Virus record (IMG/VR): IMGVR_UViG_3300016474_000578
Span: 1-33,688 of that record
DNA from: a virus
Lineage: Duplodnaviria; Caudoviricetes
DNA: 33,688 bases
Strand: one strand, 5' to 3'
Shown: piece after piece, positions 4,820 to 32,169 of the stretch
Layout: each line of letters opens with the position of its first letter
Numbering within the stretch: position 1 is the first letter of the stretch
Notes under the pieces: generated by a model
What the model saw: only the letters and a program-made list of their open reading frames with translations
What the model was told of the DNA's origin: nothing
Databases searched by the model: none
Translations under genes and position numbers: made by a program

Positions 4820-5084
4820 GGTTTCGCATCTCGCGGACTTCTGCGACGATTGCAAATTGCAGCGGATTAGATTCCGCCCATCGTGCAAAGTCGCTCGATC
4901 CGGCTTTATAGCTCTCAAATGCGCTGTAGGTGTTCAGCGCAACGGTCATGTGATTAAGCAGCATGGCGGGCAGTTCGCCGTCAAATACCGCAGCGACTCC
5001 CCATCGTTGAATGCGCCATGCCAAAATCAGTTCTGGCGGCGGTGGCGCATTTTGTTCCGCACATTCCGCCGCCGCCAGTATTAG
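4809..5084 (-). CDS. Tail assembly chaperone GT extension (-1 frameshift product, about 233 aa in total)
   Basis: C CCA AAA AAC TAA at 5093-5081; the -1 frame reads LILAAAECAEQNAPPPPELILAWRIQRWG... open to 4809. Confidence 0.8.
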   Translation of the reverse strand, partial: LILAAAECAEQNAPPPPELILAWRIQRWGVAAVFDGELPAMLLNHMTVALNTYSAFESYKAGSSDFARWAESNPLQFAIVAEVREMRNHAN

Positions 5085-5509
5085 TTTTTTGGGACTTGAG
5101 TAACCTGCAAGTACAACTCACCCACCCGCTCGGCGATCCATGTCACCTGCCATGGCGGCATGTTGTCCACGTCATCCAGTTGCATAACGGGCGCAACGAT
5201 CCAACCCGACTCAATCGCCGCTTTGACCATCACGCTGTGATTTGCCGAGACGGTCAACACCTCGTTATTGTTTAGCACTTCGATGGCTTTCTCGAGTGCC
5301 TCTGCAATCGTGCGATAGGCAGCCACAAAGACATCCGGCTTGTTCTCCGCAATGCTCAGCTTTTTGATGGCTTCAAATGCACGGTTGAGTTCCGGCTTTG
5401 CGTCGTCATTGCGCAAGCGGCGGGCGACCTTTTCCCATGCCACAACGTGCCGTTGTTTTGGCTCATCGATCAGCTCAATGGTCAAGTCGCGGATAGCGTG
5501 AGTTGACAT
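5081..5509 (-). CDS. Tail assembly chaperone G
   Basis: Between major tail and tape measure genes; ends PKN* on a slippery site. Confidence 0.8.
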   Translation of the reverse strand: MSTHAIRDLTIELIDEPKQRHVVAWEKVARRLRNDDAKPELNRAFEAIKKLSIAENKPDVFVAAYRTIAEALEKAIEVLNNNEVLTVSANHSVMVKAAIESGWIVAPVMQLDDVDNMPPWQVTWIAERVGELYLQVTQVPKN

Positions 5510-5907
5510 TATGCGACGGTCGAATCTGTGACCGCTCCGGTCACGCGATAGGTGATCGTAATGGCTGCCGCCTGGTTGTGCGTCACAGGACGTGAGCGCG
5601 ATGTCACAAATGCGGTCGCGGCGCGCTTGGGCTTGCCAGAGCTATTGCCCTGCGGGTAAAACTCAATCGCCACCGAATCAACATTCAGCGGAGCAGCTGC
5701 ATGGATGGTATTGGCAGCGTCATCCCAGGCGTTCACGGTAATGGTTGCAGATCGTTCTGACGGCAAAAATTCCTTGTCGTCCTGCGCCGCGCCGGTCACA
5801 TCCAACTCGTCACGCTGTTCGGGCCAATCCACAGAAACCAACGTTCCGGTCGGGAAAGTAAAGGTCCCATGCTTGAACACCATGTCCTTGCCATCGTATT
5901 TAGCCAT
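5509..5907 (-). CDS. Major tail (tube) protein
   Basis: 132 aa; ELDVT..DKEFLP..G..K...AFVTS..ITYRVTGAV pattern; synteny. Confidence 0.8.
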   Translation of the reverse strand: MAKYDGKDMVFKHGTFTFPTGTLVSVDWPEQRDELDVTGAAQDDKEFLPSERSATITVNAWDDAANTIHAAAPLNVDSVAIEFYPQGNSSGKPKRAATAFVTSRSRPVTHNQAAAITITYRVTGAVTDSTVA

Positions 5908-6098
5908 TATTTATTCTCCTTCGGCGTTTCGGCAGCCGCGCCTTTTTCTGTGATCTTGCCAGCGTCCTTGAGGGCTTGAATTTCTGCAGGACTCAAATGC
6001 GACAGGTCAATCACCTGCCCTTCGTGATAATCTTTGCCATCCGCGCGACTCGAAAGAATTGCGCCAACAGCAACAACGTATTGTTTTTTTTCTGCCAT
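5907..6098 (-). CDS. Small hypothetical virion protein
   Basis: 63 aa, AAGG RBS, translationally coupled to the tail tube gene. Confidence 0.6.
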   Translation of the reverse strand: MAEKKQYVVAVGAILSSRADGKDYHEGQVIDLSHLSPAEIQALKDAGKITEKGAAAETPKENK

Positions 6099-6107
6099 GG
6101 TTTTTCC

Positions 6108-6566
6108 TTATGAATATTTCACAGCACGAACAGGGACGATCTCATAGCGATACGGCACTCCGCTCAGGTCTTCCGAAAGACCCACGCGAGAGCGCCCATT
6201 CGGCATGAGCTTGTCCCAGTATCCGTTCACTTTGTAGTTGTCGCGGATCACATCCGCGATTTTTTTGCGACCCAGGTCGAGCGCGTCTTCCGAGTTTTGC
6301 GCCGTCCAACTCTGCGCAGCATTGGCGTACAGGACAAACACGGTGATGTAAAAATCGAACTCGGCGTCACCGGTTGCAACGTCGTTGCTGTCCGCTGCCG
6401 GTTCGGTGTAATCACTGTCACCCGATGCAATCACGATGTTTCGCGCCTTGCCGTTGAACTCAGCCGTTCCATAGTTGTAAACGTCCCAGGTGCTATCAAA
6501 CGCGGCATCGATCAGGCTTGCAAGTTGTTCCCGCCATGTCTGGCGGTTAATCGAGTTACTTGGCAT
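6108..6566 (-). CDS. Tail terminator/completion protein
   Basis: Size and position before the tail tube gene. Confidence 0.6.
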   Translation of the reverse strand: MPSNSINRQTWREQLASLIDAAFDSTWDVYNYGTAEFNGKARNIVIASGDSDYTEPAADSNDVATGDAEFDFYITVFVLYANAAQSWTAQNSEDALDLGRKKIADVIRDNYKVNGYWDKLMPNGRSRVGLSEDLSGVPYRYEIVPVRAVKYS

Positions 6567-6978
6567 AGATCAACGCCTCCATGATATGACGGCTCGCTCG
6601 TGCGCTCACCTGTCCGCCGATCTCCTCAACCGTTCGGTCGTAGAACGCATGTTCGCCTCCGCGCTCATGCTCATAAACGCCATACTCAGCAGGTCGGTAT
6701 TTGCGCTTCCCGCTGCGACGCGGAGAGACGACCGAGGGGTCGATGTAGATGATCGCCTCCAGTCCGTCAAGTCGAATTCGGTGACTGTTCTTCAACGCCC
6801 CGCCGCCGACGTACTTGCCTACATGCGTAATTTGCACCGCGTGACGATGTAACGCAACGGCGGCATCACGCACCGCCTCCCCTGCTGCGCCCTCCGGCTT
6901 CATGTTTGCAATGCGGCGAAGATTGCGTTCCTGCGCCTCTTGAGCACCTTCAAGCGTGTATTGTGGGATATACGGCAT
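6556..6978 (-). CDS. HK97 gp10-like neck/tail completion protein
   Basis: GGALKNSH, YGVYEHERGG, FYDRTV motifs; synteny. Confidence 0.6.
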   Translation of the reverse strand: MPYIPQYTLEGAQEAQERNLRRIANMKPEGAAGEAVRDAAVALHRHAVQITHVGKYVGGGALKNSHRIRLDGLEAIIYIDPSVVSPRRSGKRKYRPAEYGVYEHERGGEHAFYDRTVEEIGGQVSARASRHIMEALIYAK

Positions 6979-7301
6979 TAGTTTCGCGTGTCCTCAAGGA
7001 TCAGGCGCATACGGGTATCACTCGTCGGCAACCAGGTATAAGGCTCAACCGTCTTGATGGGATACTTCACCGCGCCAATCGTCAAACGGTCACCCGCCTT
7101 GATGTCTGGCGCATTCTGTAAATGCACTTCCCACAAAATAACGGGAGTATTGAGCTGTAGGCGAGTGCGCGTTTCCGCATCCACTGGCGCAAGCGGAGTG
7201 CATTTCAGGCTTGATAAGTTTGCAGAGAAACCACCCGTCAGGGTGGCTCTCTCTGTCCCGCATGTTACGGTTGCCATGGCTGCAAATGAGCTATCAGTCA
7301 T
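6978..7301 (-). CDS. Head-tail joining (stopper) protein
   Basis: DIKAGDRLTIGAVKYPI motif; synteny. Confidence 0.65.
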   Translation of the reverse strand: MTDSSFAAMATVTCGTERATLTGGFSANLSSLKCTPLAPVDAETRTRLQLNTPVILWEVHLQNAPDIKAGDRLTIGAVKYPIKTVEPYTWLPTSDTRMRLILEDTRN

Positions 7302-8124
7302 AGGTCATTTTTCTCTGGATGACTGCGCCGCCTGAACTTCCGCCGCTTCCGCTGCCCTTGCCATTCCCAATGATCTGCCCGATCATGGCAGACTTCTGCG
7401 AAAGATTTTGACGATACGGTCCGGTGGTGGTATCCACTTCGACGGCATACTCGGTTTGTAACTGCTCGAGCATTTCACGTCGCACAGTTTCGATCAGCGT
7501 TTGCACCTGCTCGGGATCAACATAACGAATCGACGGAGTTCCGTCTTCATCGTCTATTGCACCAACTGTGCGCAATCCCGCGTCAATGGCATAGGTGTAC
7601 GAGCCTTCAGTCAATGCGCCATTTGGTGTTGTAGAAAGACTGCGTTCACTGGCGAGCCGCCCAAGTTTGGCATGCACAGACGCCGCAACCTGGGCGCGGG
7701 TGATCGGCACGAACCAGATCCAAACGTCATCGATCTTGATGTCACCCGCCGCAGAGTTGTTGGCAATGGTGACGCGGTAACTTGTTCCCTCGGTCAAGCC
7801 GAGGTTATAGGTCGTTTCTGTCCATGTGTTGGCGGTTCCGCTCAGGTTCTGCGTGATGACCGCATTGCCGTCGCCGTCAATGATGGCGAGCGTAGCTTGT
7901 GCGCCGCTTAGGTTTGCACCAACAGCTTTCACCGATATATGCACGCTCTGCAAACGGGTGTCATCAACGGCGAACTCCTGCCAGATCGAACCACCAACCG
8001 GAAGAACGGCGACGCCATAATGCTCGTCACCGTCACCGGCTGAATATGACGCACCGCTTGAGGGCGTCCATCCGTTCAGATTATGCAGAAACTTCCCGTT
8101 GATCAGACTGTTGCGATCTGTCAT
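7294..8124 (-). CDS. Head-tail adaptor with N-terminal carbohydrate-binding-like domain
   Basis: N-terminal LINGKF..NGW..SIWQ..IKIDDV pattern (CBM4/9-like); helical C-terminal half at the adaptor position. Confidence 0.55.
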   Translation of the reverse strand: MTDRNSLINGKFLHNLNGWTPSSGASYSAGDGDEHYGVAVLPVGGSIWQEFAVDDTRLQSVHISVKAVGANLSGAQATLAIIDGDGNAVITQNLSGTANTWTETTYNLGLTEGTSYRVTIANNSAAGDIKIDDVWIWFVPITRAQVAASVHAKLGRLASERSLSTTPNGALTEGSYTYAIDAGLRTVGAIDDEDGTPSIRYVDPEQVQTLIETVRREMLEQLQTEYAVEVDTTTGPYRQNLSQKSAMIGQIIGNGKGSGSGGSSGGAVIQRKMTYD

Positions 8125-8416
8125 GAGTTACCTTCTTTTTGGCAGCATCCGCCTTTACGCCTGGCTCCGGTTGGGATTTCTTTGTCGGCAGCATTTCCGC
8201 CTCGCTCAACGCCTCCTCTTCCAGAGGCTGCGGAGAGAACGGAGAGGCGAGCGGTCGATCAAATCGTTGATTGCCGCTCGCTTCAAAATAGGCTTTTTTT
8301 TCATCAGGGCTTGCCAAACGCCAACCGGCGAGCTTTAGTCGTTGTCGCGCGTGTTCCTCGCTCACAACGTGCATAATCCCTTTTGGGTTGACGATCAAAT
8401 AAGACTTTTCAGTCAT
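8081..8416 (-). CDS. Hypothetical protein (head module)
   Basis: 111 aa ORF in the operon. Confidence 0.6.
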   Translation of the reverse strand: MTEKSYLIVNPKGIMHVVSEEHARQRLKLAGWRLASPDEKKAYFEASGNQRFDRPLASPFSPQPLEEEALSEAEMLPTKKSQPEPGVKADAAKKKVTHDRSQQSDQREVSA

Positions 8417-8430
8417 TCAGAACCTTTCTA

Positions 8431-8814
8431 CTAGGCGAAGGTGATGGCGCTGGAAGGGTAGAGCTTTCCGTCTGGCGCAACAAGGACAAGATAGAACGAC
8501 TTGGCGGTTGATTCGGTGATGGTGACATCGATGTCGCCATCCACCTCAGAGACGACCACGCCCGCGACGTTGTTGGTGTGCTCAATGAGCAAACCATCGG
8601 TGCCGATGGCAATACCACCATCAGGCGCGGTTGCAATGGCATCGCCGGTGGCGTTACTGGCGAGATACCACATAAGCGCCACGCGCTCAGCAATATCTCC
8701 GCCGTTTTTGCGGTCGGTCAACTGAATGGAGACGTTGATCGCGTTGGCAGCTTCAGACCCGATGGTAAACACCGGCTTGATAAGTAGATCGCGGTTATTG
8801 TTGAAATTGGTCAT
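8431..8814 (-). CDS. Putative capsid decoration protein
   Basis: Beta-rich protein directly after the major capsid gene; start MTNFNN with GAAGGA RBS. Confidence 0.5.
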   Translation of the reverse strand: MTNFNNNRDLLIKPVFTIGSEAANAINVSIQLTDRKNGGDIAERVALMWYLASNATGDAIATAPDGGIAIGTDGLLIEHTNNVAGVVVSEVDGDIDVTITESTAKSFYLVLVAPDGKLYPSSAITFA

Positions 8815-8827
8815 GTGGGAATCCTTC

Positions 8828-8854
8828 ACGGGGCAGGGTCATCCCCTGCCCCGT
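8828..8854 (-). promoter_or_regulatory. GC-rich stem-loop after the major capsid gene
   Basis: acggggcaggg/ccctgccccgt inverted repeat with no U-tract. Confidence 0.55.
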
Positions 8855-8864
8855 TGTGCTTGCT

Positions 8865-9761
8865 TTAGATCTCGTCGGTGGAAACTGCCACGCCGTGGCT
8901 ATCGCGCATTTCAGCAACACCGTAAAGGGTGTCGATGGTGAACTTCGCGCCGAGATAGTCGGGGTCGTAGGACATGGTCACGCGGAGAGCGACACCGTCT
9001 TCCGCCATCACGCGCTGGACCGCACCCATGCCAGCAGGGGCAACGGGCAACGGGCGATTTGCCATCACGATGGCGTTGCGGTGGAAGAACAGGTTTTTGC
9101 ACTGTCCGCCTGCAACAGCGATCTTCTGGTCGAGGAACACATCGAAGCCCATGAAACGACCGGTGAACGCGCCGGCAGCCTTGGAGCCGAGCGATTCGGC
9201 ATAGTCGCGGTTGACGACCTTTTCAATGCCGAGCATTTCATACTCAGCATCTTCATGCAACACAGCGAAGCGGTTTTCGAGCGGGGCTTTCGCGGCATTG
9301 AGCAAGCGGCGAGCTTCGCGGAAGGTCAACTCGCTCAAACCGGCGGTGGCGTCGATGGTCTGGGAGAGACCGGAATACAGCGCGGCGATGTCGGCGTCGA
9401 TCTGCTCAGCCAACACAGCCATGGCATCGGCGGCGTACACAGAGAACCAGTCAGGGCGGGCGAATGCCTTGGCGAGGTCTTCGATCAAGAACGAAACTTC
9501 CTTGTGCTTGTTCAGCGTCAAGGTATAAACGGCGTCGTCGGGTTGCTGCAGGGTGACGGTGGAGCCGGCGCTCTTGTCATTGACAGAGAGCGAGCCGCCA
9601 TAAGGGATCTTGACGACGTTACCGTACTGCGCGACTTCGTTCTCGTAATCACGATTGACGAGGCGGGCGAGGACGGTGTTTGCTTTGAGATAACCGAGCG
9701 CCTGGGCGGCGACGATGGTCGGGGTACTATCCGCGACCTGTGAGGTGGTTATATTAGCCAT
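8865..9761 (-). CDS. Major capsid protein (P22 coat/HK97 fold)
   Basis: LVNRDYE..GNVVKIP..LTLNKHKEVSF..LAEQID..GRFMGFDVF..FHRNAI..DTLYG. Confidence 0.92.
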   Translation of the reverse strand: MANITTSQVADSTPTIVAAQALGYLKANTVLARLVNRDYENEVAQYGNVVKIPYGGSLSVNDKSAGSTVTLQQPDDAVYTLTLNKHKEVSFLIEDLAKAFARPDWFSVYAADAMAVLAEQIDADIAALYSGLSQTIDATAGLSELTFREARRLLNAAKAPLENRFAVLHEDAEYEMLGIEKVVNRDYAESLGSKAAGAFTGRFMGFDVFLDQKIAVAGGQCKNLFFHRNAIVMANRPLPVAPAGMGAVQRVMAEDGVALRVTMSYDPDYLGAKFTIDTLYGVAEMRDSHGVAVSTDEI

Positions 9762-9831
9762 TGCATATTCTCCAAATTAGGTTGATGTGTGAATGCACGG
9801 CGTTTCGTTTTTAACGTCCTACGCGACGAGC

Positions 9832-10335
9832 CTACTGCTTGGATTGACTTGCCAAATACTGCCGCACCTGTTCGGGTGTGGCGGTGGCGAAGTCAAAATT
9901 AGAACTGCTTCCGCCTTTGGGCGGCGGGGTGACTCCGAGTGGAGTCTCTTTTTTCATGAAAGCGAGCAGGGAGTCGATGTCTTTTGCGATCTCGTCCTCG
10001 GTCGCGCCTTGTATCCTGTTTACAAGATCAACGGGTAAACCTTTTGAGGACGCCAGCTTCAACTTCATGTTGGTAACTTTTTCAGTGCTCAACTGCGACT
10101 GCAGATCTTCATACAATTTCTTGTAATCGCCCTGCTCTTTGAGCCGTTTCTCTTCCTCGACCTTCTGGCGGTCTTGAATTTCCTTGAACTGCTGCTCGAG
10201 CGTTTTGTATTTTTCGTTTACCTCTTTGAAACGCTCATAAGGAACCGGAGCCGGCTCCTGGGCTTGCGTCTGCTGCGGTTCTGCCTGCGGCGTGGTTTCC
10301 ACTGGGTCGCTGTTCGTGGTTTGGGTTTGTCCCAT
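9832..10335 (-). CDS. Capsid scaffolding protein
   Basis: VPYERFKEVN motif and coiled coil, upstream of the capsid gene. Confidence 0.85.
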   Translation of the reverse strand: MGQTQTTNSDPVETTPQAEPQQTQAQEPAPVPYERFKEVNEKYKTLEQQFKEIQDRQKVEEEKRLKEQGDYKKLYEDLQSQLSTEKVTNMKLKLASSKGLPVDLVNRIQGATEDEIAKDIDSLLAFMKKETPLGVTPPPKGGSSSNFDFATATPEQVRQYLASQSKQ

Positions 10336-15603: not shown

Positions 15604-16932
15604 TTAATCGATTAATTCCGGCGTAATCCCTGTCGCTGTGTAGAAGCGTTCGAGGATGACAGCACCGTATTTCTCGCTCAGTTCCATTGCGTAACAGCGG
15701 CGGTTTAGGTTGTGGGCGGCGATTATGGTTGTGCCACTGCCTGCGAAGGGTTCGGCTGTAATGTCGTTCTCGCCTGTCATAGCCTCAATATATTGTTGCG
15801 GCAATGTAACGGGCATGACTGCGGGATGATATTTTGTCATATCCCTTGCTTGCTCATTTATCAGAGTTGAAACAGTCCCTAATTGCCTATGAGAGCGAAT
15901 AACTAAATTTTTACCCTTCTTTACGCTTCCATCAGTCTGCCTATTGCTCGAATGGTCGTTATACTCTCCACCGCTTTTGTTGGGGATAGTTAGGTTTAGT
16001 TCTTTCCTGCTCCTGCCGAAAACGAAAATAAACTCGTGCTGAATTGCAAACATAGCCGTAATCTGCGCCATCGAAAAGCCCGCGTCTTCTCTATTCCAAA
16101 CATTCCACGATAAAAACTTATATCCGCTATCTTTTGCGGTCTTTATGTAATCATTCCAATACTCAAATATTTCGTTTTCTTTTCTTTGTATTCCTAGATT
16201 GACAACCTGATAATTGCAGAAATCAGAAAAAGCATGAATAAACCTTACGAGATTCTCTACACCTAAATCCCCGCCTTCGTAATCCCGCATATCTGAATAA
16301 GGCGGGCTTGTAAACAATAACTCCGCCCTCTCCCCGCCCATCAGCCTTTCGACGTTCTCCCGCACCGTACAATCGCCAATCAGCAAACGATGCTCCCCCA
16401 GCCTCCACAACTGCCCCGTCGCCGTTTTCCACTTCTCCGCCAGTTCCCCAGCGCGGTCAATCTGCGGCTCTGCGTCAACGGGTTCGACCGTCTCAGACTT
16501 GAGCAATTCCTTCAAGTTATTTGCATCGTTGTTCCATTGCTTCAGCGTATCCGCGTTCATGCCCCACGACTGCAAATCGCCAGCGTTCCAGCCGGAAAGC
16601 TGCTGCCAATTCCATTCACCCGTCGCGCCAGTGTGCAACGTAATAATGAGTTCCTTATGCTCTGCTTCCGTCAATTTGCGGTCTGCGACCATTGCGTCCA
16701 TGACGTGATCCGCGCCGTACACCGTCAACCACGCGCTCAAGCGTTGGTGTCCATCCAATAACAGATAACGCCCGTTCTCCTCAGGGTTGAGAAGGAACGG
16801 GACAGGCTGCCCGAATTTTGTTTCCGAGTCAATGATCCGCTTCGCTTGCGCCTTCGTACTCATGCGCGGGTTTCCTTCCCACGCTGCGATCTGCCCAAGT
16901 TTTACGCGGACGGGTGTCCATTTTGGTTTCAT
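15604..16932 (-). CDS. ParB-like N-terminal domain fused to N4C/N6A DNA methyltransferase
   Basis: NPR..LLDGHQRL (ParB-N); TSPPY catalytic motif, HPAVMP, EPFAGSGTT SAM-binding motif. Confidence 0.9.
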   Translation of the reverse strand: MKPKWTPVRVKLGQIAAWEGNPRMSTKAQAKRIIDSETKFGQPVPFLLNPEENGRYLLLDGHQRLSAWLTVYGADHVMDAMVADRKLTEAEHKELIITLHTGATGEWNWQQLSGWNAGDLQSWGMNADTLKQWNNDANNLKELLKSETVEPVDAEPQIDRAGELAEKWKTATGQLWRLGEHRLLIGDCTVRENVERLMGGERAELLFTSPPYSDMRDYEGGDLGVENLVRFIHAFSDFCNYQVVNLGIQRKENEIFEYWNDYIKTAKDSGYKFLSWNVWNREDAGFSMAQITAMFAIQHEFIFVFGRSRKELNLTIPNKSGGEYNDHSSNRQTDGSVKKGKNLVIRSHRQLGTVSTLINEQARDMTKYHPAVMPVTLPQQYIEAMTGENDITAEPFAGSGTTIIAAHNLNRRCYAMELSEKYGAVILERFYTATGITPELID

Positions 16933-16937
16933 CTGCT

Positions 16938-17072
16938 CTATCTTTCTCTTGTCACACAAAGCGTCTCACCACACCAACAACGCGCAAAGGCATGGTCGCA
17001 CTCAAAATACTTAGGCGGCTTGAAAACGTGACCAAGCCAGCCATGCACCCGACGGATTGCCCTATGAAGCAT
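16938..17072 (-). CDS. Possible small hypothetical protein (44 aa)
   Basis: Fills the gap and overlaps both neighbours; Cys/His-rich. Confidence 0.3.
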   Translation of the reverse strand: MLHRAIRRVHGWLGHVFKPPKYFECDHAFARCWCGETLCVTRER

Positions 17073-23402: not shown

Positions 23403-24281
23403 ATGATTGCAATGATGCAGGAAGTGGAAAGATTTCTTAGAACATGCAAATCCCCCAATACCGCTGCCGGTTATCGCCTGGTGCTCACTCGACTCGTTGA
23501 GTGGCTATCGGTGCGTTCACTTGCGTTCACTGACATCACCCCAGTGCTATTCGATGAATTTCTCAACGATCAGCACCAGTGGAAGGCTGTTTCAAAACAC
23601 CTGGCATTTAATGTCACCCGATCATTTCTGCGCTGGCAGTATGGGGAGGAACACGCACTGTCAAAGGTTCGCCGTAAACGTCCAAAATCCAAACCGCAGC
23701 CGACAATCACCCAGGCTCAGTTCGAGCGGCTGCTCGAGTTTTTCAATACGATGACCCCCATCGGCGCGCGCGATCTGGCTCTTTTCTCGCTCGCCGCTGA
23801 AACGGGTCTCAGGGCAACCGCTCTATGCAACCTCAAGATGGCAGATCTGCATCTGGAGTCGTTGTCTCTTATTGCGCTGGATAAAGGGGCGGATGGTGGG
23901 GAGTGGCGCATCTGCAAATTTAGCGCGCCGGTCGCGTCGTACCTTGCCGCATGGCTGGCTCATCGTCAGACGATTGCCCTGCCTGATACTGATACCGTAT
24001 TCTGTTCCGTGTATGGAATCAAAAAAGGCAAGCCGAATCATCGTTTCGGCTTGCTGTCACGCTGCAGGGAAATCTCCGAGAAGGTCGGATTCAAATTCAC
24101 CCCTCACGTGTTCAGGCGCTTCATGGCAACGCGTATGTTGCAGCTCAAAGCCTCAACGATTGCAACCATGCGCCAGGGTGGGTGGAAAGATGAGAAAGAG
24201 TTCCGAAAGTACATCACAACCTACCAGTTGGACGACATGACGGACTATTCTGCGGTCGTGGACTATCTCAAAAAGAGATAA
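23403..24281 (+). CDS. int: Tyrosine integrase (probable tRNA-targeting phage integrase)
   Basis: TGLR, DKG, TPHVFRR, GGW, KY catalytic set; attP 57 bp downstream. Confidence 0.9.
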   Translation: MIAMMQEVERFLRTCKSPNTAAGYRLVLTRLVEWLSVRSLAFTDITPVLFDEFLNDQHQWKAVSKHLAFNVTRSFLRWQYGEEHALSKVRRKRPKSKPQPTITQAQFERLLEFFNTMTPIGARDLALFSLAAETGLRATALCNLKMADLHLESLSLIALDKGADGGEWRICKFSAPVASYLAAWLAHRQTIALPDTDTVFCSVYGIKKGKPNHRFGLLSRCREISEKVGFKFTPHVFRRFMATRMLQLKASTIATMRQGGWKDEKEFRKYITTYQLDDMTDYSAVVDYLKKR

Positions 24282-24324: not shown

Positions 24325-24338
24325 AAACTCCGCAAAAC

Positions 24339-24383
24339 CTCATAAGCCCTTGGTCGGGAGTTCAAATCTCCCCCTCGGCACCA
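24339..24383 (+). other. attP core: 3' half of a tRNA with CAU anticodon (Met or Ile2)
   Basis: CTCATAA anticodon loop, GGGAG-TTCAAAT-CTCCC T-arm, CCTCGGC-A-CCA acceptor end; no 5' half upstream. Confidence 0.9.
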
Positions 24384-25102: not shown

Positions 25103-25131
25103 TTGACAAGCCCACGCCCATCGTTTATACT
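25103..25131 (+). promoter_or_regulatory. Rightward early promoter (may also drive the cassette array)
   Basis: TTGACA-17 bp-TATACT. Confidence 0.8.
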
Positions 25132-25204: not shown

Positions 25205-25615
25205 ATGTCCGAACAAAAAGCAGATTATTCAATTACGGGGGTAAAAAATCTGGCTGCAAGCCTTGAGGAGCTTTACGCAAGGCGCGACCTCTTGAAGATC
25301 CAGCACAATGACGCACGAAACGCAGTTGTCCCCGAAGACGTGAAATCCGCTGTTGCAGATGTTGACGCGGAATTTGCTCCCATGCTCGAAGGCATTGCAC
25401 AGAAGATCGAAGAGGCTGAGGCTGAGGTCAAAAAAGCCGTTTTAGATATTGGGGAAACCATCAGCACAGAAAATATCCAGGTCATCTACAAAAAAGGTGC
25501 TGTATCTTGGGACTCTAAAAAATTAGATGGACTCATGATCGTAATCCCGCAGCTTGAGCAGGCACGCAAGCAAGGTGAGCCGTCTGCCTATATCAAGACC
25601 AGAAAGGCAGCCTAG
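25205..25615 (+). CDS. Siphovirus gp157/Gam-like coiled-coil protein
   Basis: AAGGAG RBS; coiled coil followed by KKGAVSWD..KQGEPSAYIK; upstream of bet. Confidence 0.6.
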   Translation: MSEQKADYSITGVKNLAASLEELYARRDLLKIQHNDARNAVVPEDVKSAVADVDAEFAPMLEGIAQKIEEAEAEVKKAVLDIGETISTENIQVIYKKGAVSWDSKKLDGLMIVIPQLEQARKQGEPSAYIKTRKAA

Positions 25616-25617
25616 CC

Positions 25618-26031
25618 ATGGGACTCACTCGCAACGGTAAACGCATCGGCATGGCTGCCTGGGCAGAAAAGCGCGATTTTCGCGACGCCATCGAAGCTAG
25701 AGGTCCGTCACTACTGACAGACCTTGACCATGCGCGAATCGAACTCATTGTCGCCACATCGTTCATGGATAATATGCGCTGGATGGACAGCAAGCACGGC
25801 GGATATGACGCGCAGGTCGCCGATGCTGAAAAACGCCACGCCGCCTCCCTCGAGCGCTTCAACGAATTGCAGGTCAACGCACTGGTGACACGCCGCGACT
25901 CCCTGCTCGCTGCCATGCGCGAAGAGGCTATCGACCAGGAAACCGCCTTCGCCATTATCGAAGAACTTGCAGAGATCGAGACCGCGTTGCAGTCAAGCGG
26001 GTATGTCTCAGTTGATGAATATCCATTCTAA
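25618..26031 (+). CDS. Hypothetical protein
   Basis: 137 aa ORF in the operon. Confidence 0.7.
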   Translation: MGLTRNGKRIGMAAWAEKRDFRDAIEARGPSLLTDLDHARIELIVATSFMDNMRWMDSKHGGYDAQVADAEKRHAASLERFNELQVNALVTRRDSLLAAMREEAIDQETAFAIIEELAEIETALQSSGYVSVDEYPF

Positions 26032-26043
26032 GGGAGATTGAAC

Positions 26044-26835
26044 ATGAACGAATTAGCTCTTGTGAAAAACGAAATTAGCGCAGATCAAGTCGATCTTATC
26101 AAACGTACGATTGCCAAAGGTGCAACCAATGATGAGCTTGGATTGTTTCTGCAGCAATGCAAACGCACTGGTCTTGATCCGTTTGCCCGTCAGATCTACA
26201 TGCGCAAGCAATGGGATAGCAAAGAACAGCGCGAGGTTATGACTGTTGGTACGGCAATCGATGGGTTTCGGGTGGTTGCCGAGCGATCAGGCGAATACGA
26301 GGGACAGGTTGGCCCGTTATGGTGCGGTGAAGATGGAAACTGGATCGATGTGTGGATTTCCAATAATCCACCAGTCGCAGCAAAGGTTGGTGTTTGGCGT
26401 AAGGGATTTCGGGAGCCAATCTGGGGAGTTGCAAAATACAGCGAGTATGTGCAGCTCAAGAAGGACGGAAACCCCAATAGCATGTGGTCGAAAATGCCAG
26501 CCAACCAATTGGCAAAATGCGCCGAGTCTCTTGCTCTGCGTAAAGCGTTTCCGCAAGATTTGAGCGGACTTTACACAGCCGAGGAGATGGAACAAGCCAA
26601 TACCACAGAATACGCGGGAAATGATATTGATGTTATCGACGGAAACGCGACGCATGAACCGATGGATTATGACGAGGCTCGTCAAATGACCGTCAAGGTA
26701 AAAGGCAGAGATAGATTTGTAGGCGAGTTGACAAAAGAGCAGTTAGATTACATCCTGGAGAACGGGAAAGATAACCGTGTGATTGAAGCAGCAAAAGTTG
26801 TGCTAAAGAACGACTTTAATATGGTGCAACCATGA
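26044..26835 (+). CDS. bet: Phage recombination protein Bet (RecT/Red-beta family annealase)
   Basis: [54 protein letters not shown]. Confidence 0.93.
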
Positions 26836-26993
26836 CCACAACAATTGATGGGTTTATCGTCACCGCAACAATGAAAGCGTATGGTATTTACACCTGCATC
26901 GTCACAAAAGGCGCAATGTACAAACAATACATCGTATTTGCCATTGACGCTGAAACCGCCTGCCGAAAGGCATACGAGCACGCATCCAAATAA
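26832..26993 (+). CDS. Small hypothetical protein (53 aa; not in the ORF track)
   Basis: ATGA overlap with bet; [18 protein letters not shown]... Confidence 0.55.
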
Positions 26994-27044
26994 CAATATA
27001 TTCGCCCTGCCTCATCCAATGGGGCAGGGCAGGAGTCACCACGA

Positions 27045-27254
27045 ATGACCACAAACACACAAAAACCAATCGCATATATTACAAGCAATCACGGTCGGCA
27101 CGAAGTGATAGTCCACGAAATACACATTGACAAGAGCGGCGTCATGATCGCTCGTGTGCAATATGCCGCAGATCGCCTCGGTCACATATTCGAGATTGTT
27201 GCAAAGCGCGTCAGTGTTGAAAATGCGCCAGCACACGAATCGGAGGCGGCATGA
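27045..27254 (+). CDS. Hypothetical protein
   Basis: AGGAG RBS; coupled to the next gene. Confidence 0.65.
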   Translation: MTTNTQKPIAYITSNHGRHEVIVHEIHIDKSGVMIARVQYAADRLGHIFEIVAKRVSVENAPAHESEAA

Positions 27255-27604
27255 AGGCACAGGATTATCTAGCCGGAATGACTCAATCCGAGGCGATACA
27301 CTACATCCAAACCCTGCCAGGACTCAGCCGCGAGGAGTTTGCCGAGCTTATGAGAGTGGCGCAAACGAAACCATCAAAACGCTATGGCCCAGAGACGGAT
27401 CTCGCGCAAATATCCAAACAGCGGGTTGAGGAGATTGTCAGATTTGTGCGCAAACGCAGAACAACGACTAGGCGCGAAATGATCAAGCACTTTCGCTGGA
27501 ACGGGACAACACTATATTTCACGATTCGACACGCCCAGGCACTCGGATTTATTGCGTCGGACATGAACGAGAGACGCGAGAAAGTTTATAGAGTGGCAAA
27601 ATAA
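27251..27604 (+). CDS. Possible winged-HTH protein
   Basis: GGAGG RBS; basic C-terminal IVRFVRKR..TRREMIKHF..LGFI..YRV. Confidence 0.6.
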   Translation: MKAQDYLAGMTQSEAIHYIQTLPGLSREEFAELMRVAQTKPSKRYGPETDLAQISKQRVEEIVRFVRKRRTTTRREMIKHFRWNGTTLYFTIRHAQALGFIASDMNERREKVYRVAK

Positions 27605-27614
27605 AAATCCGATC

Positions 27615-27845
27615 ATGCACACACCCAATCCCAACAATTACCGCATGTGGTTAGGCGAGGAAGTAAACAAGGCTTTATTTACTCTTGTTGCCAATAAGAA
27701 CTCCAACGCCCTAAAGGAGCTATCCGTCACAGAGTACGTCGAAAAGATGATCGCGCACTGGTGGAAGCAAGAATTTCCCGATGTTCCCGTGCCGTTTAAT
27801 GTCAAGCGGTACGATGCAGATTTAGATTTTGTACAATCTGGTTAA
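27615..27845 (+). CDS. Possible ribbon-helix-helix protein
   Basis: YRMWLGEEV..L..SVTEYVEKMI pattern. Confidence 0.45.
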   Translation: MHTPNPNNYRMWLGEEVNKALFTLVANKNSNALKELSVTEYVEKMIAHWWKQEFPDVPVPFNVKRYDADLDFVQSG

Positions 27846-27860
27846 ATCATAGTTAGTTGC
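27820..27860 (+). other. Candidate attI-like primary insertion site (crossover G27852|TT)
   Basis: GTTAGTTGC at 27852-27860 is the reverse complement of R'' of attC1; no attC hairpin upstream. Confidence 0.65.
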
Positions 27861-27871
27861 TTAGGAGAAAA

Positions 27872-28114
27872 ATGATAACTGTTCAAACTGAAATAGCCGA
27901 GAAGGTAGCATGTATTTGTTGCGGTGCTGAAAAGTATGCCACGCAATCACCGTATCTATGTCACAACTGCTGGAAAAATGGCGAAGCTGCCAAACTTATT
28001 CAGCAACTAACACAGCGTGCACTTGACGGGCTGTGGGCATGTGAAAATTGCGGAGACTGGCTTGAAAATGGAGAGTGTAAGAATTGCGAGTCTCCATTAG
28101 CCGCCCGCAAGTAA
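27872..28114 (+). CDS. Cassette 1 gene: Cys-rich zinc-finger protein
   Basis: AGGAG RBS; four CxxC motifs; stop codon in L' of attC1. Confidence 0.75.
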   Translation: MITVQTEIAEKVACICCGAEKYATQSPYLCHNCWKNGEAAKLIQQLTQRALDGLWACENCGDWLENGECKNCESPLAARK

Positions 28115-28129
28115 CGCAAACCGTTAGCC
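28005..28129 (+). repeat. attC1 (125 bp)
   Basis: aactaac-acagcgtgcacttgacgggc...gcccgcaagtaacgcaaacc-gttagcc. Confidence 0.9.
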
Positions 28130-28150
28130 CGCTCTGGGCAAAGGAGAATA

Positions 28151-28531
28151 ATGTCTAAAATATTACGATTACTTGATTTATCTTTTGAGGCTTGGGCAAC
28201 TCTCGACCACACATTTCACGAGAGGCTGGCAGGCGATTTGTACGAAGCCATCGAGGATGTTAGAAACGAAAATAACACATCTCAAATGGAGGCTTTCGAC
28301 GAGGCTCTTGAATGGGCAGCAAGTTGGATCACTGGGGCGCAGTTACTTGGTCGCAGTGAAGAAATCCAAGAATATGCCAGCAACATGGCAATGTCCATTC
28401 GGGCGGCTAAACGCGGGCTAACACAGCGTGCACCCGACGTTTGCCCCGCAGATGGTGGTAAGCATAGTTGGCATCCAAACAAAGATAATTATTTAATTTA
28501 CTCGTGTCGCAAATGCGGGGCACGCGGGTAA
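28151..28531 (+). CDS. Cassette 2 gene: hypothetical with C-terminal Cys/His motif
   Basis: AAGGAG RBS; stop codon in L' of attC2. Confidence 0.75.
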   Translation: MSKILRLLDLSFEAWATLDHTFHERLAGDLYEAIEDVRNENNTSQMEAFDEALEWAASWITGAQLLGRSEEIQEYASNMAMSIRAAKRGLTQRAPDVCPADGGKHSWHPNKDNYLIYSCRKCGARG

Positions 28532-28546
28532 CGCAAACCGTTAGCC
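28416..28546 (+). repeat. attC2 (131 bp)
   Basis: ggctaac-acagcgtgcacccgacgt...acgcgggtaacgcaaacc-gttagcc. Confidence 0.9.
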
Positions 28547-28567
28547 CGCTCTGGGCAAAGGAGTGTC

Positions 28568-28852
28568 ATGGTAGATATTACAAAAATTTCAGAAGAAGAA
28601 TTGAACAACGATTACAGAATCGCGCATAACGAAAGGCAGTTTTGCGAAATGGCTATGTTTGCAGGTCTTAAAGAATACAATGGTGTTGACCTTGCAGAGC
28701 AGATTATGAAAGCAAATACTATTATGGAAAAGATAATGTCTGAAATCAATCGGCGCGGGCTAACACAGCGTGTACCTGACACTTTGGACTCTGTCGCATC
28801 TAAAGCAGTTTTCAAAGCCTCAGCCAAATTCACTTTAGAAGATGAATCTTAA
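28568..28852 (+). CDS. Cassette 3 gene: hypothetical protein
   Basis: AAGGAG RBS; stops inside the attC3 loop. Confidence 0.75.
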   Translation: MVDITKISEEELNNDYRIAHNERQFCEMAMFAGLKEYNGVDLAEQIMKANTIMEKIMSEINRRGLTQRVPDTLDSVASKAVFKASAKFTLEDES

Positions 28853-28886
28853 CCTGCCAAAGTGCAGGTAACGCAATCCGTTAGGT
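28758..28886 (+). repeat. attC3 (129 bp)
   Basis: ggctaac-acagcgtgtacctgacactttgg...ccaaagtgcaggtaacgcaatcc-gttaggt. Confidence 0.9.
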
Positions 28887-28893
28887 GGCTGAA

Positions 28894-29214
28894 ATGCAAA
28901 ATTTGATAACTGATGAAGAATGGAAAATGTTGTCAGCGGAAAGCCGTCATCGGCTGAATCTCTTGCTTGCTTATCCGTGTGAATGGCAAATCCACGATGA
29001 AGAAGCAAACGCATGGGAATCTGCCTGCGGGCTTGTGTGGTGGTTTGAGGTCGGTTCGCCAGCAGAAAATGAAATGGCGTATTGTCCTAAATGTGGTCGC
29101 CACCTAACACAGCGTGCAGTGGATGAAGGGGATTCGTCCGCTCCCGAAGGTGATGCGTCACCCGAAGTTTTACCCGCTGGTGAGGCTGGTTCTACGCCCG
29201 CCCTTCACCACTAA
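28894..29214 (+). CDS. Cassette 4 gene: zinc-ribbon-like protein
   Basis: CEW..WESACG..YCPKCGR; stop codon in L' of attC4. Confidence 0.75.
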   Translation: MQNLITDEEWKMLSAESRHRLNLLLAYPCEWQIHDEEANAWESACGLVWWFEVGSPAENEMAYCPKCGRHLTQRAVDEGDSSAPEGDASPEVLPAGEAGSTPALHH

Positions 29215-29229
29215 CGCAAACCGTTCGGC
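29102..29229 (+). repeat. attC4 (128 bp)
   Basis: acctaac-acagcgtgcagtggatgaaggg...cccttcaccactaacgcaaacc-gttcggc. Confidence 0.9.
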
Positions 29230-29263
29230 GGACGCTCACTGAACATAACGAAAGGAAAATAAA

Positions 29264-29488
29264 ATGACAAAGGTAATGGTGTTCAATTTCAAAACTATGC
29301 AGTTTGAGCAAGCCAGCGAGGAAGAGGGCAATGATCTTCTTTCGCTAATCAGTGCTATGAATAGCGAATGCGCCGCCGAACAAAACATGCACGCGGACGG
29401 GGCTTGCCCCAAGTGCGGCGCAGAAGGTTACGTCATCTTAGGTGATGGGCGAAAATATTGTAATATCTGCAAAACGCCCCGCCGGTAA
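29264..29488 (+). CDS. Cassette 5 gene: small zinc-ribbon protein
   Basis: AAGGA RBS; CPKC..CNIC encoded within attC5. Confidence 0.75.
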   Translation: MTKVMVFNFKTMQFEQASEEEGNDLLSLISAMNSECAAEQNMHADGACPKCGAEGYVILGDGRKYCNICKTPRR

Positions 29489-29502
29489 TGCAGCCGTTAG
29501 CC
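29375..29502 (+). repeat. attC5 (128 bp)
   Basis: gccgaac-aaaacatgcacgcggacggggc...gccccgccggtaatgcagcc-gttagcc. Confidence 0.85.
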
Positions 29503-29538
29503 GCAAACTGGCTTGAAGTTGGAGAAAAGGAAATTATC

Positions 29539-29748
29539 ATGCCTCTAAAAGTTACTATCATCGTATCCGTACAAGACGCAGAACATGATCGCTATAGCGA
29601 CCCAAGCGGTCAAGAAAGTGTTGAGCTTTATTGCATTGAAACTTCCGAAATTGAACAGGCTTCAAACGCGGTAGCCTCGTCACTCGTGAAGGTTGCCAAT
29701 CTGAAATATAAGGCTGAAATCGCCGAGAAAGAATTAGAAGGCGGCTAA
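29539..29748 (+). CDS. Cassette 6 gene: hypothetical protein
   Basis: AAGGA RBS; stop TAA lies in R'' (canonical cassette layout). Confidence 0.75.
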   Translation: MPLKVTIIVSVQDAEHDRYSDPSGQESVELYCIETSEIEQASNAVASSLVKVANLKYKAEIAEKELEGG

Positions 29749-29831
29749 CAAAGCGTGCACCCGACGCCGCGCCACAGTCGCATTTTTTGGACAGGTTACG
29801 GGCGCGGCGCGGGTAACGCAAGCCGTTAGGT
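29743..29831 (+). repeat. attC6 (89 bp)
   Basis: ggctaac-aaagcgtgcacccgacgccgcgcc...ggcgcggcgcgggtaacgcaagcc-gttaggt. Confidence 0.9.
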
Positions 29832-29838
29832 GGCTTCC

Positions 29839-30234
29839 ATGCTATCCGTTTACGACAAAATACAAAACGCTTGTTTTCAACTCAATCACGACGCATATAT
29901 TTTGCAGTCGAAAACCAAGAAGCACATGCGCCAATTCTCGCCGTGTGAAAAATCGCTTGTCTTGCTAGAGTGCTTGCGTGAAGAAACTCACTTCGGTATG
30001 GCTATGGCTGTTGCTTCTAGAACTCACTGCAATTGTCACAACAATCTTTCCGAAGATGGCTTGTGGGCTATGTGTTTCGATGACACTGCCCGTCAAAATC
30101 ATTATGCTGGTGCGGCGCGCCACCTAACAAAGCGTGCAGGCGACGAAGGGGATTCTCCCGCTTCCAAGCCTTTGTCCACACTCGAAGTTAGTCCCGCTGA
30201 GCAGGCATTATCTACGCCCGCCCTTCGCGCCTAA
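29839..30234 (+). CDS. Cassette 7 gene: hypothetical Cys/His-rich protein
   Basis: Stop codon in L' of attC7. Confidence 0.7.
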   Translation: MLSVYDKIQNACFQLNHDAYILQSKTKKHMRQFSPCEKSLVLLECLREETHFGMAMAVASRTHCNCHNNLSEDGLWAMCFDDTARQNHYAGAARHLTKRAGDEGDSPASKPLSTLEVSPAEQALSTPALRA

Positions 30235-30249
30235 CGCAAACCGTTGGGC
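30122..30249 (+). repeat. attC7 (128 bp)
   Basis: acctaac-aaagcgtgcaggcgacgaaggg...cccttcgcgcctaacgcaaacc-gttgggc. Confidence 0.9.
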
Positions 30250-30265
30250 GCAGGAGCGAAGTAGC

Positions 30266-30979
30266 ATGAAAGCAAAGAAAGTTCTCAACCTTTACGCTGG
30301 GCTTGGCGGCAATCGTAAGTTATGGCAAGATGTCGAAGTTACTGCCGTTGAAATGGAACAAGATATAGCCGATGTTTACAAGGCACAATTTCCAAACGAC
30401 ACAGTTATTATCGGCGACGCTCACCAATATCTTTTAGATCACTCCGATGAGTTTGATTTTGTTTGGACTTCGCCACCTTGCCAGAGCCATAGTCGAATGA
30501 TGAAAGCCACTCGCCACAAGGTACGCAAATATCCTGACATGGCTTTATATCAGCAAGTGATTTTCTTGCAAAACTTTTTCAAAGGTCAATGGGTTGTCGA
30601 GAATGTGAAGCCTTATTATGAGCCTTTGATAAAGCCAGCGGCAATACTTGGCAGGCATTATTTCTGGTCAAACTTTGCCATCTCACAGTTTGAAGTACCA
30701 AGCCCGAAAGGTTTTATCACAGCAGGCACGGTTGCCGAAACTCAAAAATTGAAAGATTGGTTAGGTATCCAATACGAAGGAAATATTTATTACAAAGGCA
30801 ATCACTGTCCTGGTCAGGTGTTGCGTAATGCAGTTCATCCGCTTTTAGGCGAGCATGTTTTCCTTTGCGCCCAACAAACGGTTGCACCTGACCGCTTTCA
30901 GCGTGAGTCCGCCGCCGTCATTCCCCTGCAAAGTAATCTCTTTGCGGATGTACCGCCCGCTACAATCAGCGGCAGGTAA
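30266..30979 (+). CDS. Cassette 8 gene: C5-cytosine DNA methyltransferase
   Basis: LYAGLGG (I), SPPCQ (IV), VENV (VI), GRHYFW (VIII), RNAVHP (X); AGGAG RBS. Confidence 0.9.
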   Translation: MKAKKVLNLYAGLGGNRKLWQDVEVTAVEMEQDIADVYKAQFPNDTVIIGDAHQYLLDHSDEFDFVWTSPPCQSHSRMMKATRHKVRKYPDMALYQQVIFLQNFFKGQWVVENVKPYYEPLIKPAAILGRHYFWSNFAISQFEVPSPKGFITAGTVAETQKLKDWLGIQYEGNIYYKGNHCPGQVLRNAVHPLLGEHVFLCAQQTVAPDRFQRESAAVIPLQSNLFADVPPATISGR

Positions 30980-30994
30980 ACCGAGCCGTTAGCC
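30869..30994 (+). repeat. attC8 (126 bp)
   Basis: gcccaac-aaacggttgcacctgaccgct...agcggcaggtaaaccgagcc-gttagcc. Confidence 0.88.
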
Positions 30995-31086
30995 CGCTAT
31001 CCCGTGACCCGTCAAGCCGCCCGTGTGGCAAAAGTGCAAAAACGGTCTTTAAGTCACCGCGTAGGTGGTAAGCGCGCGGAAATAAT

Positions 31087-31118
31087 AAAAACCGACTCCC
31101 ACCACGAATGGGAGTCGG
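31087..31118 (-). terminator. Intrinsic terminator downstream of the second recombinase
   Basis: ccgactccca/tgggagtcgg stem; T-tract on the minus strand. Confidence 0.65.
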
Positions 31119-31180
31119 CAGCGCAGAAAGACGGAGCCGATCTGCATTCATATTCTACCAAATACCAAAGTCAAATAAAA

Positions 31181-31211
31181 GATTATGTGGTTAGGCTATA
31201 ACCACATAATC
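31181..31211. repeat. Perfect 13-5-13 inverted repeat (terminator or recombinase site)
   Basis: gattatgtggtta-ggcta-taaccacataatc. Confidence 0.7.
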
Positions 31212-32116
31212 TATTTTTTATTGAAAATCCTATCATACGCCTCATCCAGGGCGCCACCCAAATGAGCGTAACGGTTCGTCGTCTGAATGCTCTTATGACG
31301 CGCCAACTCCTGCGAGATCTTGAGGTCGCCAGACGCAAGATACGTGACGGTCACAAAATAATGACGAAAATCGTGAATTCTTATGGAGTTTCGATCAACA
31401 CCCGCTTCCGCAATTCGACCAACCACACCGCGCGCTGGATCTCCCTTTATCGCTTTCCACATCCCAGACGGCACAACCCGTTTTATTTTTTTTGATGCAG
31501 ACTTATCGTGTCTCGCAAAGACAGGCTGAGAGGCGAGGGGAGAGCGCGAATTTGTGTCGATGCTTGCCCGTGCCTGTAAATATTCCTTTAGCGCCGCAAT
31601 GGCACGATTCGAGAATCGCACCACCGCTTGTTTGTCGCCCTTGCCAACAATAACCGCCCACTGCTCCCTCCAGTCAATATCACCGCGTTTCAGGCTGCAA
31701 GCCTCGGAAATACGCAGTCCTGTATCAACAAGCGTCAACACAAATGCCCTGTCGCGTAGAGCGAGCAAGTCACCGCGCAGCTTTTCGCAATATTGAATAA
31801 CGCGCTCAATTCCCTCTCGGTCGAAGTTGACAACCCTATCCCCCTGTAAGCTGATATAGTGTCGATCTGCCGCGTCCATCCTGGCTGTGTCGCCAACGCC
31901 AATGAAATTATATAAACTGCGAACTGCTGTCCTGTATTGTTTTTGAGTGGTGGGGGAGTGGTCATGAAGCGCGTGCAAAAACCTGGTGTAATTCTCAACC
32001 GTCAACTCACCGCCTGTTATGATGACAAATTGATTGATCGCGTTCTTATACGACCGGATTGTTTTGGGAGAGCGATTCAAGGTTGTTAGAAAGTGGTTTA
32101 TTTGAGCCTGGGTCAT
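31211..32116 (-). CDS. Second tyrosine recombinase (XerC/D-like)
   Basis: SPKTIRSY, RDRA..TGLRISE, GKG, HDFRHY, LARH, RYAH; start MTQAQ with AGAGGA RBS. Confidence 0.92.
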   Translation of the reverse strand: MTQAQINHFLTTLNRSPKTIRSYKNAINQFVIITGGELTVENYTRFLHALHDHSPTTQKQYRTAVRSLYNFIGVGDTARMDAADRHYISLQGDRVVNFDREGIERVIQYCEKLRGDLLALRDRAFVLTLVDTGLRISEACSLKRGDIDWREQWAVIVGKGDKQAVVRFSNRAIAALKEYLQARASIDTNSRSPLASQPVFARHDKSASKKIKRVVPSGMWKAIKGDPARGVVGRIAEAGVDRNSIRIHDFRHYFVTVTYLASGDLKISQELARHKSIQTTNRYAHLGGALDEAYDRIFNKK

Positions 32117-32169
32117 TTTTCCTCTCTTTATTTTAGGTGAATGTTCCAATAATTATACTTACCTAAGAT

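Follow-up and report, generated by a model that had tools for sequence, protein, structure and literature searches.

What is the row of small genes, each closed by an imperfect palindrome, at positions 27853 to 30994 of the virus record IMGVR_UViG_3300016474_000578 (IMG/VR; Duplodnaviria, Caudoviricetes), and what moves these genes? An initial annotation, made from the 33,688 nucleotides of this record (the window), had read them as an integron-style array of eight gene cassettes with attC sites. We consider it quite probable that they belong to an integron-type module without an integrase gene, which resides in a phage that is probably temperate and probably infects Anaerolineales, and which is recombined in trans.

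Eight imperfect palindromes measuring 89-131 nt from box to box are present in the window at positions 28005-28129, 28416-28546, 28758-28886, 29102-29229, 29375-29502, 29743-29831, 30122-30249 and 30869-30994 (sites 1-8). They combine R'' (AAC) and R' (GTT) with inverted L'' and L' boxes, a bottom-strand hairpin, an unpaired central spacer and a variable terminal structure. A covariance model (R1), for which 40 attC sites from metagenomes and no window sequence were used, returned exactly these eight sites, all on the bottom strand, with scores of 34.7-95.9 bits (next best 10.9 bits). The R1 alignment is 94.5% paired with a double change in 13 pairs, and a scan of the window with Rfam gave no matches. 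The bottom strands of the circular forms fold with z scores of -3.0 to -7.3 against shuffles. Positions, sizes and model matches agree with the attC architecture first described for these palindromes, and the extra unpaired L'' bases and covarying arms described with it are kept across 153 phage sites. At the extrahelical L''-arm positions (as defined in the relevant part of Nivina 2016, PMC5027507), the top strand has C in 145 and A in 142 of these sites, which corresponds to G (145/153) and T (142/153) on the bottom strand, and the stems covary. The eight attC sites of the window are therefore real.

In all eight cassettes R'' is complementary to the start of its own cassette, with an exact reverse complement over 10, 10, 10, 10, 9, 9, 10 and 10 nt (cassettes 1-8), versus 5, 10, 5, 3, 3, 5, 3 and 3 nt for the adjacent R'. 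Only 4 of the 40,320 possible orders of the eight starts give a match of at least 9 nt at all eight positions. The initial annotation had stated that R'' pairs with its own start and not with the adjacent R' in every case. The first half of this statement holds throughout and the second at seven of eight sites, since cassettes 2 and 3 start alike. Its further proposal that the cassettes were inserted by G|TT crossover is borne out by the own-start match together with relatives that differ in cassette content exactly at G|TT. With eight attC sites (at least two define the class), no neighbouring intI and a complete genome, the array is a cluster of attC sites lacking integron-integrases (CALIN).

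This cluster is headed by an attI-type site at 27830-27858 (+ strand), which has no R'' upstream and places the crossover G|TT at 27852|27853. The initial annotation did not include this head site, the decayed ninth site (30989-31076) or the reading of ORFs into attC, and it did not name the acting enzyme. In a leave-one-out matrix of 42 other head sites, 27852 ranked first of the 1171 GTT positions in the window (23.8 versus 12.1 bits). A conserved head site without upstream R'' also starts the arrays of related viral loci, at least 137 of which were collected with a 16-nt attC pattern scan. The site detector gave 0 hits in 764 kb of shuffled DNA and found arrays of up to 10 sites in the viral loci, where 117 of 159 junctions show a match of 8 nt or more between R'' and the start of its own cassette, compared to 15 of 159 for the adjacent R'. 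The same type of head site starts metagenome arrays including locus L228, the sedentary chromosomal integron of Candidatus (Ca.) Denitrolinea symbiosum, marked as such by a divergent intI of that name (IntI GER80211.1) and a threonine aldolase gene. L228 shares both the attC family (R1) and the attI type with the window, and the first 10 nt of its first cassette are identical to those of window cassette 1. A reading of the head site as a short attC of another family was rejected, as it has no R'' upstream. Its conservation and the variation of first cassettes at its G|TT indicate a site that heads the array and receives cassettes, and by its sequence it appears to be an attI of the Anaerolineales kind, with binding by the enzyme predicted. 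Formally the window thus carries an attI-headed CALIN and not a complete integron, which nevertheless appears to work like one.

The initial annotation had suggested comparing relatives at exact G|TT junctions, and in such comparisons the flanks are kept while the first cassettes differ. Eight of 23 listed sequencing runs were compared; as all read data are assembled contigs, array order and cassette circles are not visible in them. Both flanks are present at high identity in runs X2, X3 and X7; the contig match in X3 stops at 27854, and X2 has another first cassette. Cassette 6 is present in X2 behind a different attC arm. In X8, X13 and X14, of which the last two look like one data set, the backbone is covered at a depth of 32-47 up to 27846-27856, the depth of cassette 1 is 0, and the assembly graph branches behind GTT into several other first cassettes. 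Cassette 1 is absent from X8, X13, X14 and X15, the last being an RNA run whose contig ends at 27856 and cannot show transcription. Uncovered cassettes in X2, X3 and X7 were counted only together with junction reads, and joints between attC sites with sides of 20-26 nt were left out of the evidence. A similar picture is seen in phages with their own integrase: the IntI of L157 is 100% identical to that of L071, and the two loci start with different cassettes; the first cassettes of the close loci L159 and L166 differ as well. Judged by these junctions, the activity of the array in nature appears real.

An assembly chimera of phage and host integron DNA, for which a coverage drop at 27850 or 30990 had been named as the sign, would be suggested by the tendency of attC repeats to break assembly graphs. 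We regard it as extremely improbable: contigs of the probable source run X1 bridge both borders at a flat depth of 13.9-15.1, both flanks recur in three other studies, and dozens of other viral records contain such arrays. In the probable source run the circle is closed by a contig joining 32500 to 26000, with 27,187 letters between them that equal the rest of the window, and the window ends join in frame within a tail gene. The window is a complete circular phage genome.

Passive capture of part of a host chromosomal integron, frozen since then, is also a very unlikely origin of the array. In its favour, the attC family and attI type are the same as in the host, and the distal end of the array has decayed; however, the array is polymorphic within single samples, and phage cassettes differ from host-like ones in size, coding fraction and content. 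Median cassette size is 357 bp in phages and 783 bp in host-like arrays, the coding fraction is 0.87 versus 0.73, and the 3' trailer 8 versus 148 nt. Among open reading frames (ORFs) of at least 95 amino acids (aa), DNA methyltransferase families account for 29 of 93 in phages and 2 of 69 in host-like cassettes, and the two body pools share only methyltransferase motif hits. In the host-like metagenome arrays, attC sites are mostly 118-119 nt long, the gene stops before R'' in 63 of 73 cassettes, and the cargo includes GNAT, TIR, Abi_C and similar proteins.

Two tyrosine recombinases are encoded in the window, neither of which is an IntI. The first, int1 (23403-24281, + strand), is a likely prophage integrase, and the second, int2 (31211-32149, - strand), is XerC-like and convergent with the array. 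Against TIGR02249 (cut-off 265) int2 scored 49.8 bits and int1 gave no match; both lack the IntI insertion, the GK-to-HxxRH distance being 90 in int2 versus 107. No intI with the IntI-specific insertion was found in the window, so activity must come in trans or from a non-IntI enzyme. A candidate for the latter is int2, which close relatives also have; it is separated from the array by about 220 nt, and has one homolog (33%) after an array in L039 and another (52%) before a degenerate attC in L030. That int2 is the phage's own cassette recombinase seems quite unlikely to us in view of its missing insertion (90 versus 107) and low score, and since the attC and attI types found here are those used by genuine IntIs. 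Furthermore, 8 of 15 records that are at least 90% complete and have these sites contain no tyrosine recombinase (no PF00589 match), which argues that an adjacent enzyme is not needed.

Genuine IntIs do occur in related phages. Among 50 viral records picked by the attC pattern, 18 of which match one terminase family (many being fragments), G003 and G019 pass the IntI cut-off and G005 is just under it. A search with one phage IntI gave 17 loci, 10 of them at 67-100% identity. In the nine loci with downstream DNA (L163 left out; L162 and L164 repeat earlier records), intI is co-oriented with the array and attI follows it within about 14 nt, in contrast to the Ca. Denitrolinea/Anaerolineales host integron with its divergent intI. 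In a quick tree the phage IntIs are placed apart from host-named Chloroflexota IntIs (Shimodaira-Hasegawa-like approximate likelihood ratio test, SH-aLRT, 99), a split that is partly by construction because each group came from a query of its own. Of 30 capsid relatives selected irrespective of attC, 0 had an IntI. Recombination in trans by an IntI of the host or of a co-infecting or helper phage is therefore the likely arrangement.

Several integrase-bearing loci deserve mention in their own right. Virus Rctr41k (L352, KX853513) contains at 4680-10101 an unrecognised complete integron in a GenBank phage, with an IntI of 55% identity that is annotated xerD and co-oriented with six attC sites. 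An INPHARED blastn search gave four records, Rctr41k and three with methyltransferase matches only. The term 'integron' is absent from the searched text of the Rctr41k paper (PMC5099504), and the name Rctr41k was not found in one supplement of Qi et al. 2023. L039 (G005) carries two arrays in one phage (868-1908 and 2620-5828). A divergent IntI starts immediately after the closing attC of the first array, and the second array is followed just as closely by an int2-like recombinase. The intI-attI-array module follows a terminase-like gene in the late operon of L158, L160, L161 and L165, in L160 before portal- and protease-like ORFs, and comes after a DnaC-like gene instead in L071, L157, L159 and L166 (all names by eye). 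A second viral IntI-like group (L167-L170) has 37-42% identity to L071, and its genes share a motif ahead of their start; arrays with attC sites of the present family were not found in these four loci.

The attC sites of the window also appear to be coding. Six of the eight cassette ORFs end at the TAA of L', one inside the loop and one at R''. Cassette 1 (27853-28123; all cassettes are on the + strand) has an ORF at 27872-28114 (80 aa) with its stop at the L' TAA and a loop that encodes CxxC..CxxC. Cassette 2 (28124-28540) has an ORF at 28151-28531 (126 aa) that stops at L', the body and tail of which are found in other combinations elsewhere; the ORF of cassette 3 (28541-28880) at 28568-28852 (94 aa) stops inside the loop. 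The ORFs of cassette 4 (28881-29223; 28894-29214, 106 aa, phrog_10312), cassette 5 (29224-29496; 29264-29488, 74 aa) and cassette 7 (29826-30243; 29839-30234, 131 aa) stop at L', and that of cassette 6 (29497-29825; 29539-29748, 69 aa) has a canonical stop in R''. Cassette 8 (30244-30988) encodes a C5 DNA methyltransferase-like protein (30266-30979, 237 aa, PF00145) with its stop at L', and a 56% identical cassette is present at another array position in L051. The cassette 5 protein shows a weak Zn-ribbon match at aa 46-69, wholly within attC (PF11781, E 2.9e-4, below the cut-off), and an ESM Atlas search with it gave only leads (scores <0.9, TM <0.5 by query).

This property extends to the viral set of 206 non-redundant cassettes (7 from the window), in which ORFs were chosen by coverage up to R'' only. 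The ORF reads into attC in 160 of them, versus 9 of 83 metagenome cassettes, a set with DNA flanks for 80 of 174 matches from which Rctr41k and two loci apparently repeating a viral record were removed. The viral stops are located at L' (110), inside the site (39), beyond it (11), at R'' (25) and before it (21). The L' stop is in the ORF frame at 119 of 147 sites, or, with each loop family counted once, in 84 of 103. ORFs enter attC in each of the three frames, and site length compensates for this, the stop being in frame in 24/27, 33/42 and 62/78 cases. Among the 110 cassettes stopping at L', a two-knuckle Cys/His motif occurs in the ORF frame of 24 of 83 loop families, compared to 0, 0, 0, 1 and 1 in the other five frames. 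CxxC was found in 0 of 72 host-like sites in any frame, after removal of six phage-like loci, five of which were judged by their compact cassettes themselves. We also counted QxSLF, which we take to be a clamp-binding-like motif, in 7 of 29 methyltransferase tails versus 4 of 131; this count is not relied on, because the data were already known when the motif was defined and because QxSLF occurs on unrelated genes within a single loop family. In L030 (7880-8016), the AAC of R'' in one attC has become AAA, which likely represents a frozen cassette with the read-through kept.

Tails of this kind are found on different bodies. A search with the cassette 2 protein gave 39 proteins, the cassette status of which was inferred from the linker, as these records are without DNA context. 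P0407 and P0408 have nearly the same body and unrelated tails, and the cassette 2 tail is present on unrelated bodies in eight proteins. Homologs without the attC-type linker, for example P0437 and P0441, stop at the point at which R'' would start. The tail is therefore supplied by attC and is not the gene's native end. In 25 disjoint loop-sharing pairs, identity is 0.55 in the variable R'' versus a background of 0.51, and is raised from the spacer on (0.78 versus 0.65). As it is raised only from there, the join lies at or near AAC. IntI is reported in the relevant part of PMC5027507 to cleave the top strand at the R'' AAC at a much lower frequency. A top-strand attC x attC event at AA|C would swap the interiors and keep the own-start match. 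The join might also stem from RecT annealing or from repeated cassette genesis from a template attC. New here, as it looks, are natural attC sites read as the C-terminus of the main gene with reassorted body and tail pairs; in a literature search covering sources other than subscription journals, neither coding attC loops nor integrons of Anaerolineales phages turned up.

A broader role for RecT, whereby annealing of the RecT type between the conserved attC arms would today be the main route of cassette exchange and the sites would be left over from earlier IntI action, appears quite unlikely. The phage does encode RecT, the arms share about 20 nt, and in some proteins with the cassette 2 tail the spacer-encoded residues vary with the body. 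Yet changes of the first cassette break at the G|TT behind attI, a place that lacks arm homology. Extrahelical bases and the pairing of the stems are conserved, and in the 25 loop-sharing pairs the spacer follows the loop and the variable R'' does not. Only tentatively do we suggest, as a possibility, that Anaerolineales phages run their own integron branch, in which, alongside the usual bottom-strand shuffling at G|TT, top-strand IntI crossovers at the AA|C of R'' swap attC interiors as coding modules and graft C-terminal domains, often zinc ribbons, onto phage proteins.

For the array itself we favour trans-acting recombination by an IntI. The early operon ends in an attI-type site that heads the eight attC cassettes, relatives have different cassettes at its G|TT, and an IntI of the host or of a co-infecting phage would recombine them. 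The predicted early promoter at 25103-25131 would transcribe the array, acting as the cassette promoter. In contrast to host cassettes, those of phages are compacted, the gene usually running through attC to the L' TAA, and the hairpin loop would form the protein's C-terminal tail, often a predicted zinc ribbon. Read-through may keep ribosomes moving to about 35 nt from the next gene. In the parts consulted of PMC8876359 and PMC11511950, translation across attC or the 3' untranslated region can lead to stronger expression of the cassette that follows (2-fold in an engineered example), and the stop overlaps attC in most resistance cassettes. The examples there are separate mini-ORFs or engineered read-through, whereas here the main gene spans the whole site. 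Carvalho 2024 (PMC11511950, as far as consulted) describes attC sites as minor determinants of polarity, which makes the translation effect weaker as the sole reason for read-through.

A number of observations weigh against this interpretation. The read data consist of contigs only, and recombination, circles and expression were not observed. Host attC loops are often open too (50, 61 and 40 of 72 by frame), so openness alone is a weak argument, and testing codon positions across 8 pairs of homologous loops gave a flat result (27/23/37). L228 is the only metagenome locus shown to be chromosomal, and a strict attI pattern, which fits only some head sites, gave one unrelated archaeal match in GTDB. 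Among 22 capsid relatives (many of them fragments), likewise selected irrespective of attC, there was one clear array, one single site and one weak site; as few capsid relatives carry arrays, the module is sporadic. A tyrosine recombinase (int2) adjoins the array both here and in L039. Host names derive from metagenome-assembled genome (MAG) labels, and this prophage was not seen in any host genome. Since the name of the capsid cluster (95% identity), 'Anaerolineales bacterium', is such a MAG label, the host is only inferred; Anaerolineales bacteria are the likely hosts by this token.

The claim that integrons are not a recognised phage feature did not survive comparison with the literature, since phage attC arrays and integrons have already been published. 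In the sections consulted, Qi et al. 2023 (PMC9892861) report three complete integrons, one In0 and 17 CALINs from 10,705 phage genomes, and recombination of five of six phage attC sites by IntI1. Like the array described here, those phages have intI-less attC arrays and methyltransferase cassettes, and Shewanella prophage M16-3 also has an attI-headed CALIN. Their cases are sporadic, and the Vibrio phage array among them is described as a captured segment of the host chromosomal integron. Unlike in those sections, which hold no population data, we describe natural variation at the attI junction and one site family in many phages, some of which have a separate co-oriented IntI group, as well as coding attC interiors.

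The surroundings of the array are those of an early operon in a tailed phage. The array forms the end of a + strand operon (25205-30979), with a consensus early promoter 2.7 kb upstream. This predicted promoter (25103-25131, + strand; 11 of 12 sigma-70 consensus matches) lies back to back with the promoter of an HTH repressor-like gene. The last fixed early gene (27615-27845, + strand) has its stop codon inside the attI-type site, and its homolog precedes the same attI-type site in L197. Downstream, a remnant of a ninth cassette (30989-31076, + strand) consists of a cassette start fused to an attC interior without R', which over 84 nt shares 96% identity with the interior of an attC in L100. 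This match rules out an alternative reading of the segment as a cassette leader, and the ninth gene was likely lost at a 5-nt microhomology. A cassette leader with its own hairpin occurs at the head and end of the array in L042 (7373-7430 and 10705-10760). The array is closed by two terminator-like hairpins (31091-31119 and 31180-31212; span 31091-31212). A plain early gene outside cassettes in L071 (2337-2705) has a C-terminal part that by eye resembles the cassette 4 body, and is absent from the BLAST hits at E 1e-4.

The window encodes a terminase, portal, capsid and tail proteins, RecT, a replication initiator and an HTH repressor-like protein besides the two tyrosine recombinases. This combination of terminase, portal, capsid, tail, integrase and repressor-like genes is that of a temperate tailed phage, and a temperate lifestyle is likely. 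Directly after int1 there is a tRNA-like 3' half (24338-24383, from the CAT anticodon to CCA), which is likely to be the core of an attP used for integrating into a tRNA gene; no whole tRNA was detected by ARAGORN in the window. A second DNA methyltransferase, of the N6/N4 type and outside the cassettes, is encoded at 15604-16959 upstream of the terminase genes. RecT (26030-26818) is replaced by other sequence in the dominant relatives of X2, X3 and X7, which is ordinary mosaicism beside the array. IMG/VR searches with int2 and with the ORF 27251-27604 gave no close relatives, and no arrays were present in the fetched flanks of 18 RecT relatives.

Integron parts in phages were known before as rare curiosities; here a phage population visibly varies its early accessory genes, apparently via attI. 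The accessory cassettes of these phages are rich in DNA methyltransferases, and in their hosts this family of sites serves cargo of the defence and detoxifying types. The attC site is usually treated as a non-coding structure, and natural sites that would also be selected as protein tails and that change partners at R'' bear on the open question of cassette origin. Nivina et al. are said to have embedded synthetic attC sites in coding sequence in 2020, and the window would be a natural counterpart of such engineered sites. Coding attC sites could serve directly as substrates in tests of top-strand recombination and as models for the design of recombination sites that encode protein. If the tentative proposal of interior swapping at AA|C is true, the integron would be a combinatorial device for building proteins, and these phages would offer a natural system for watching an attC become attached to a gene.

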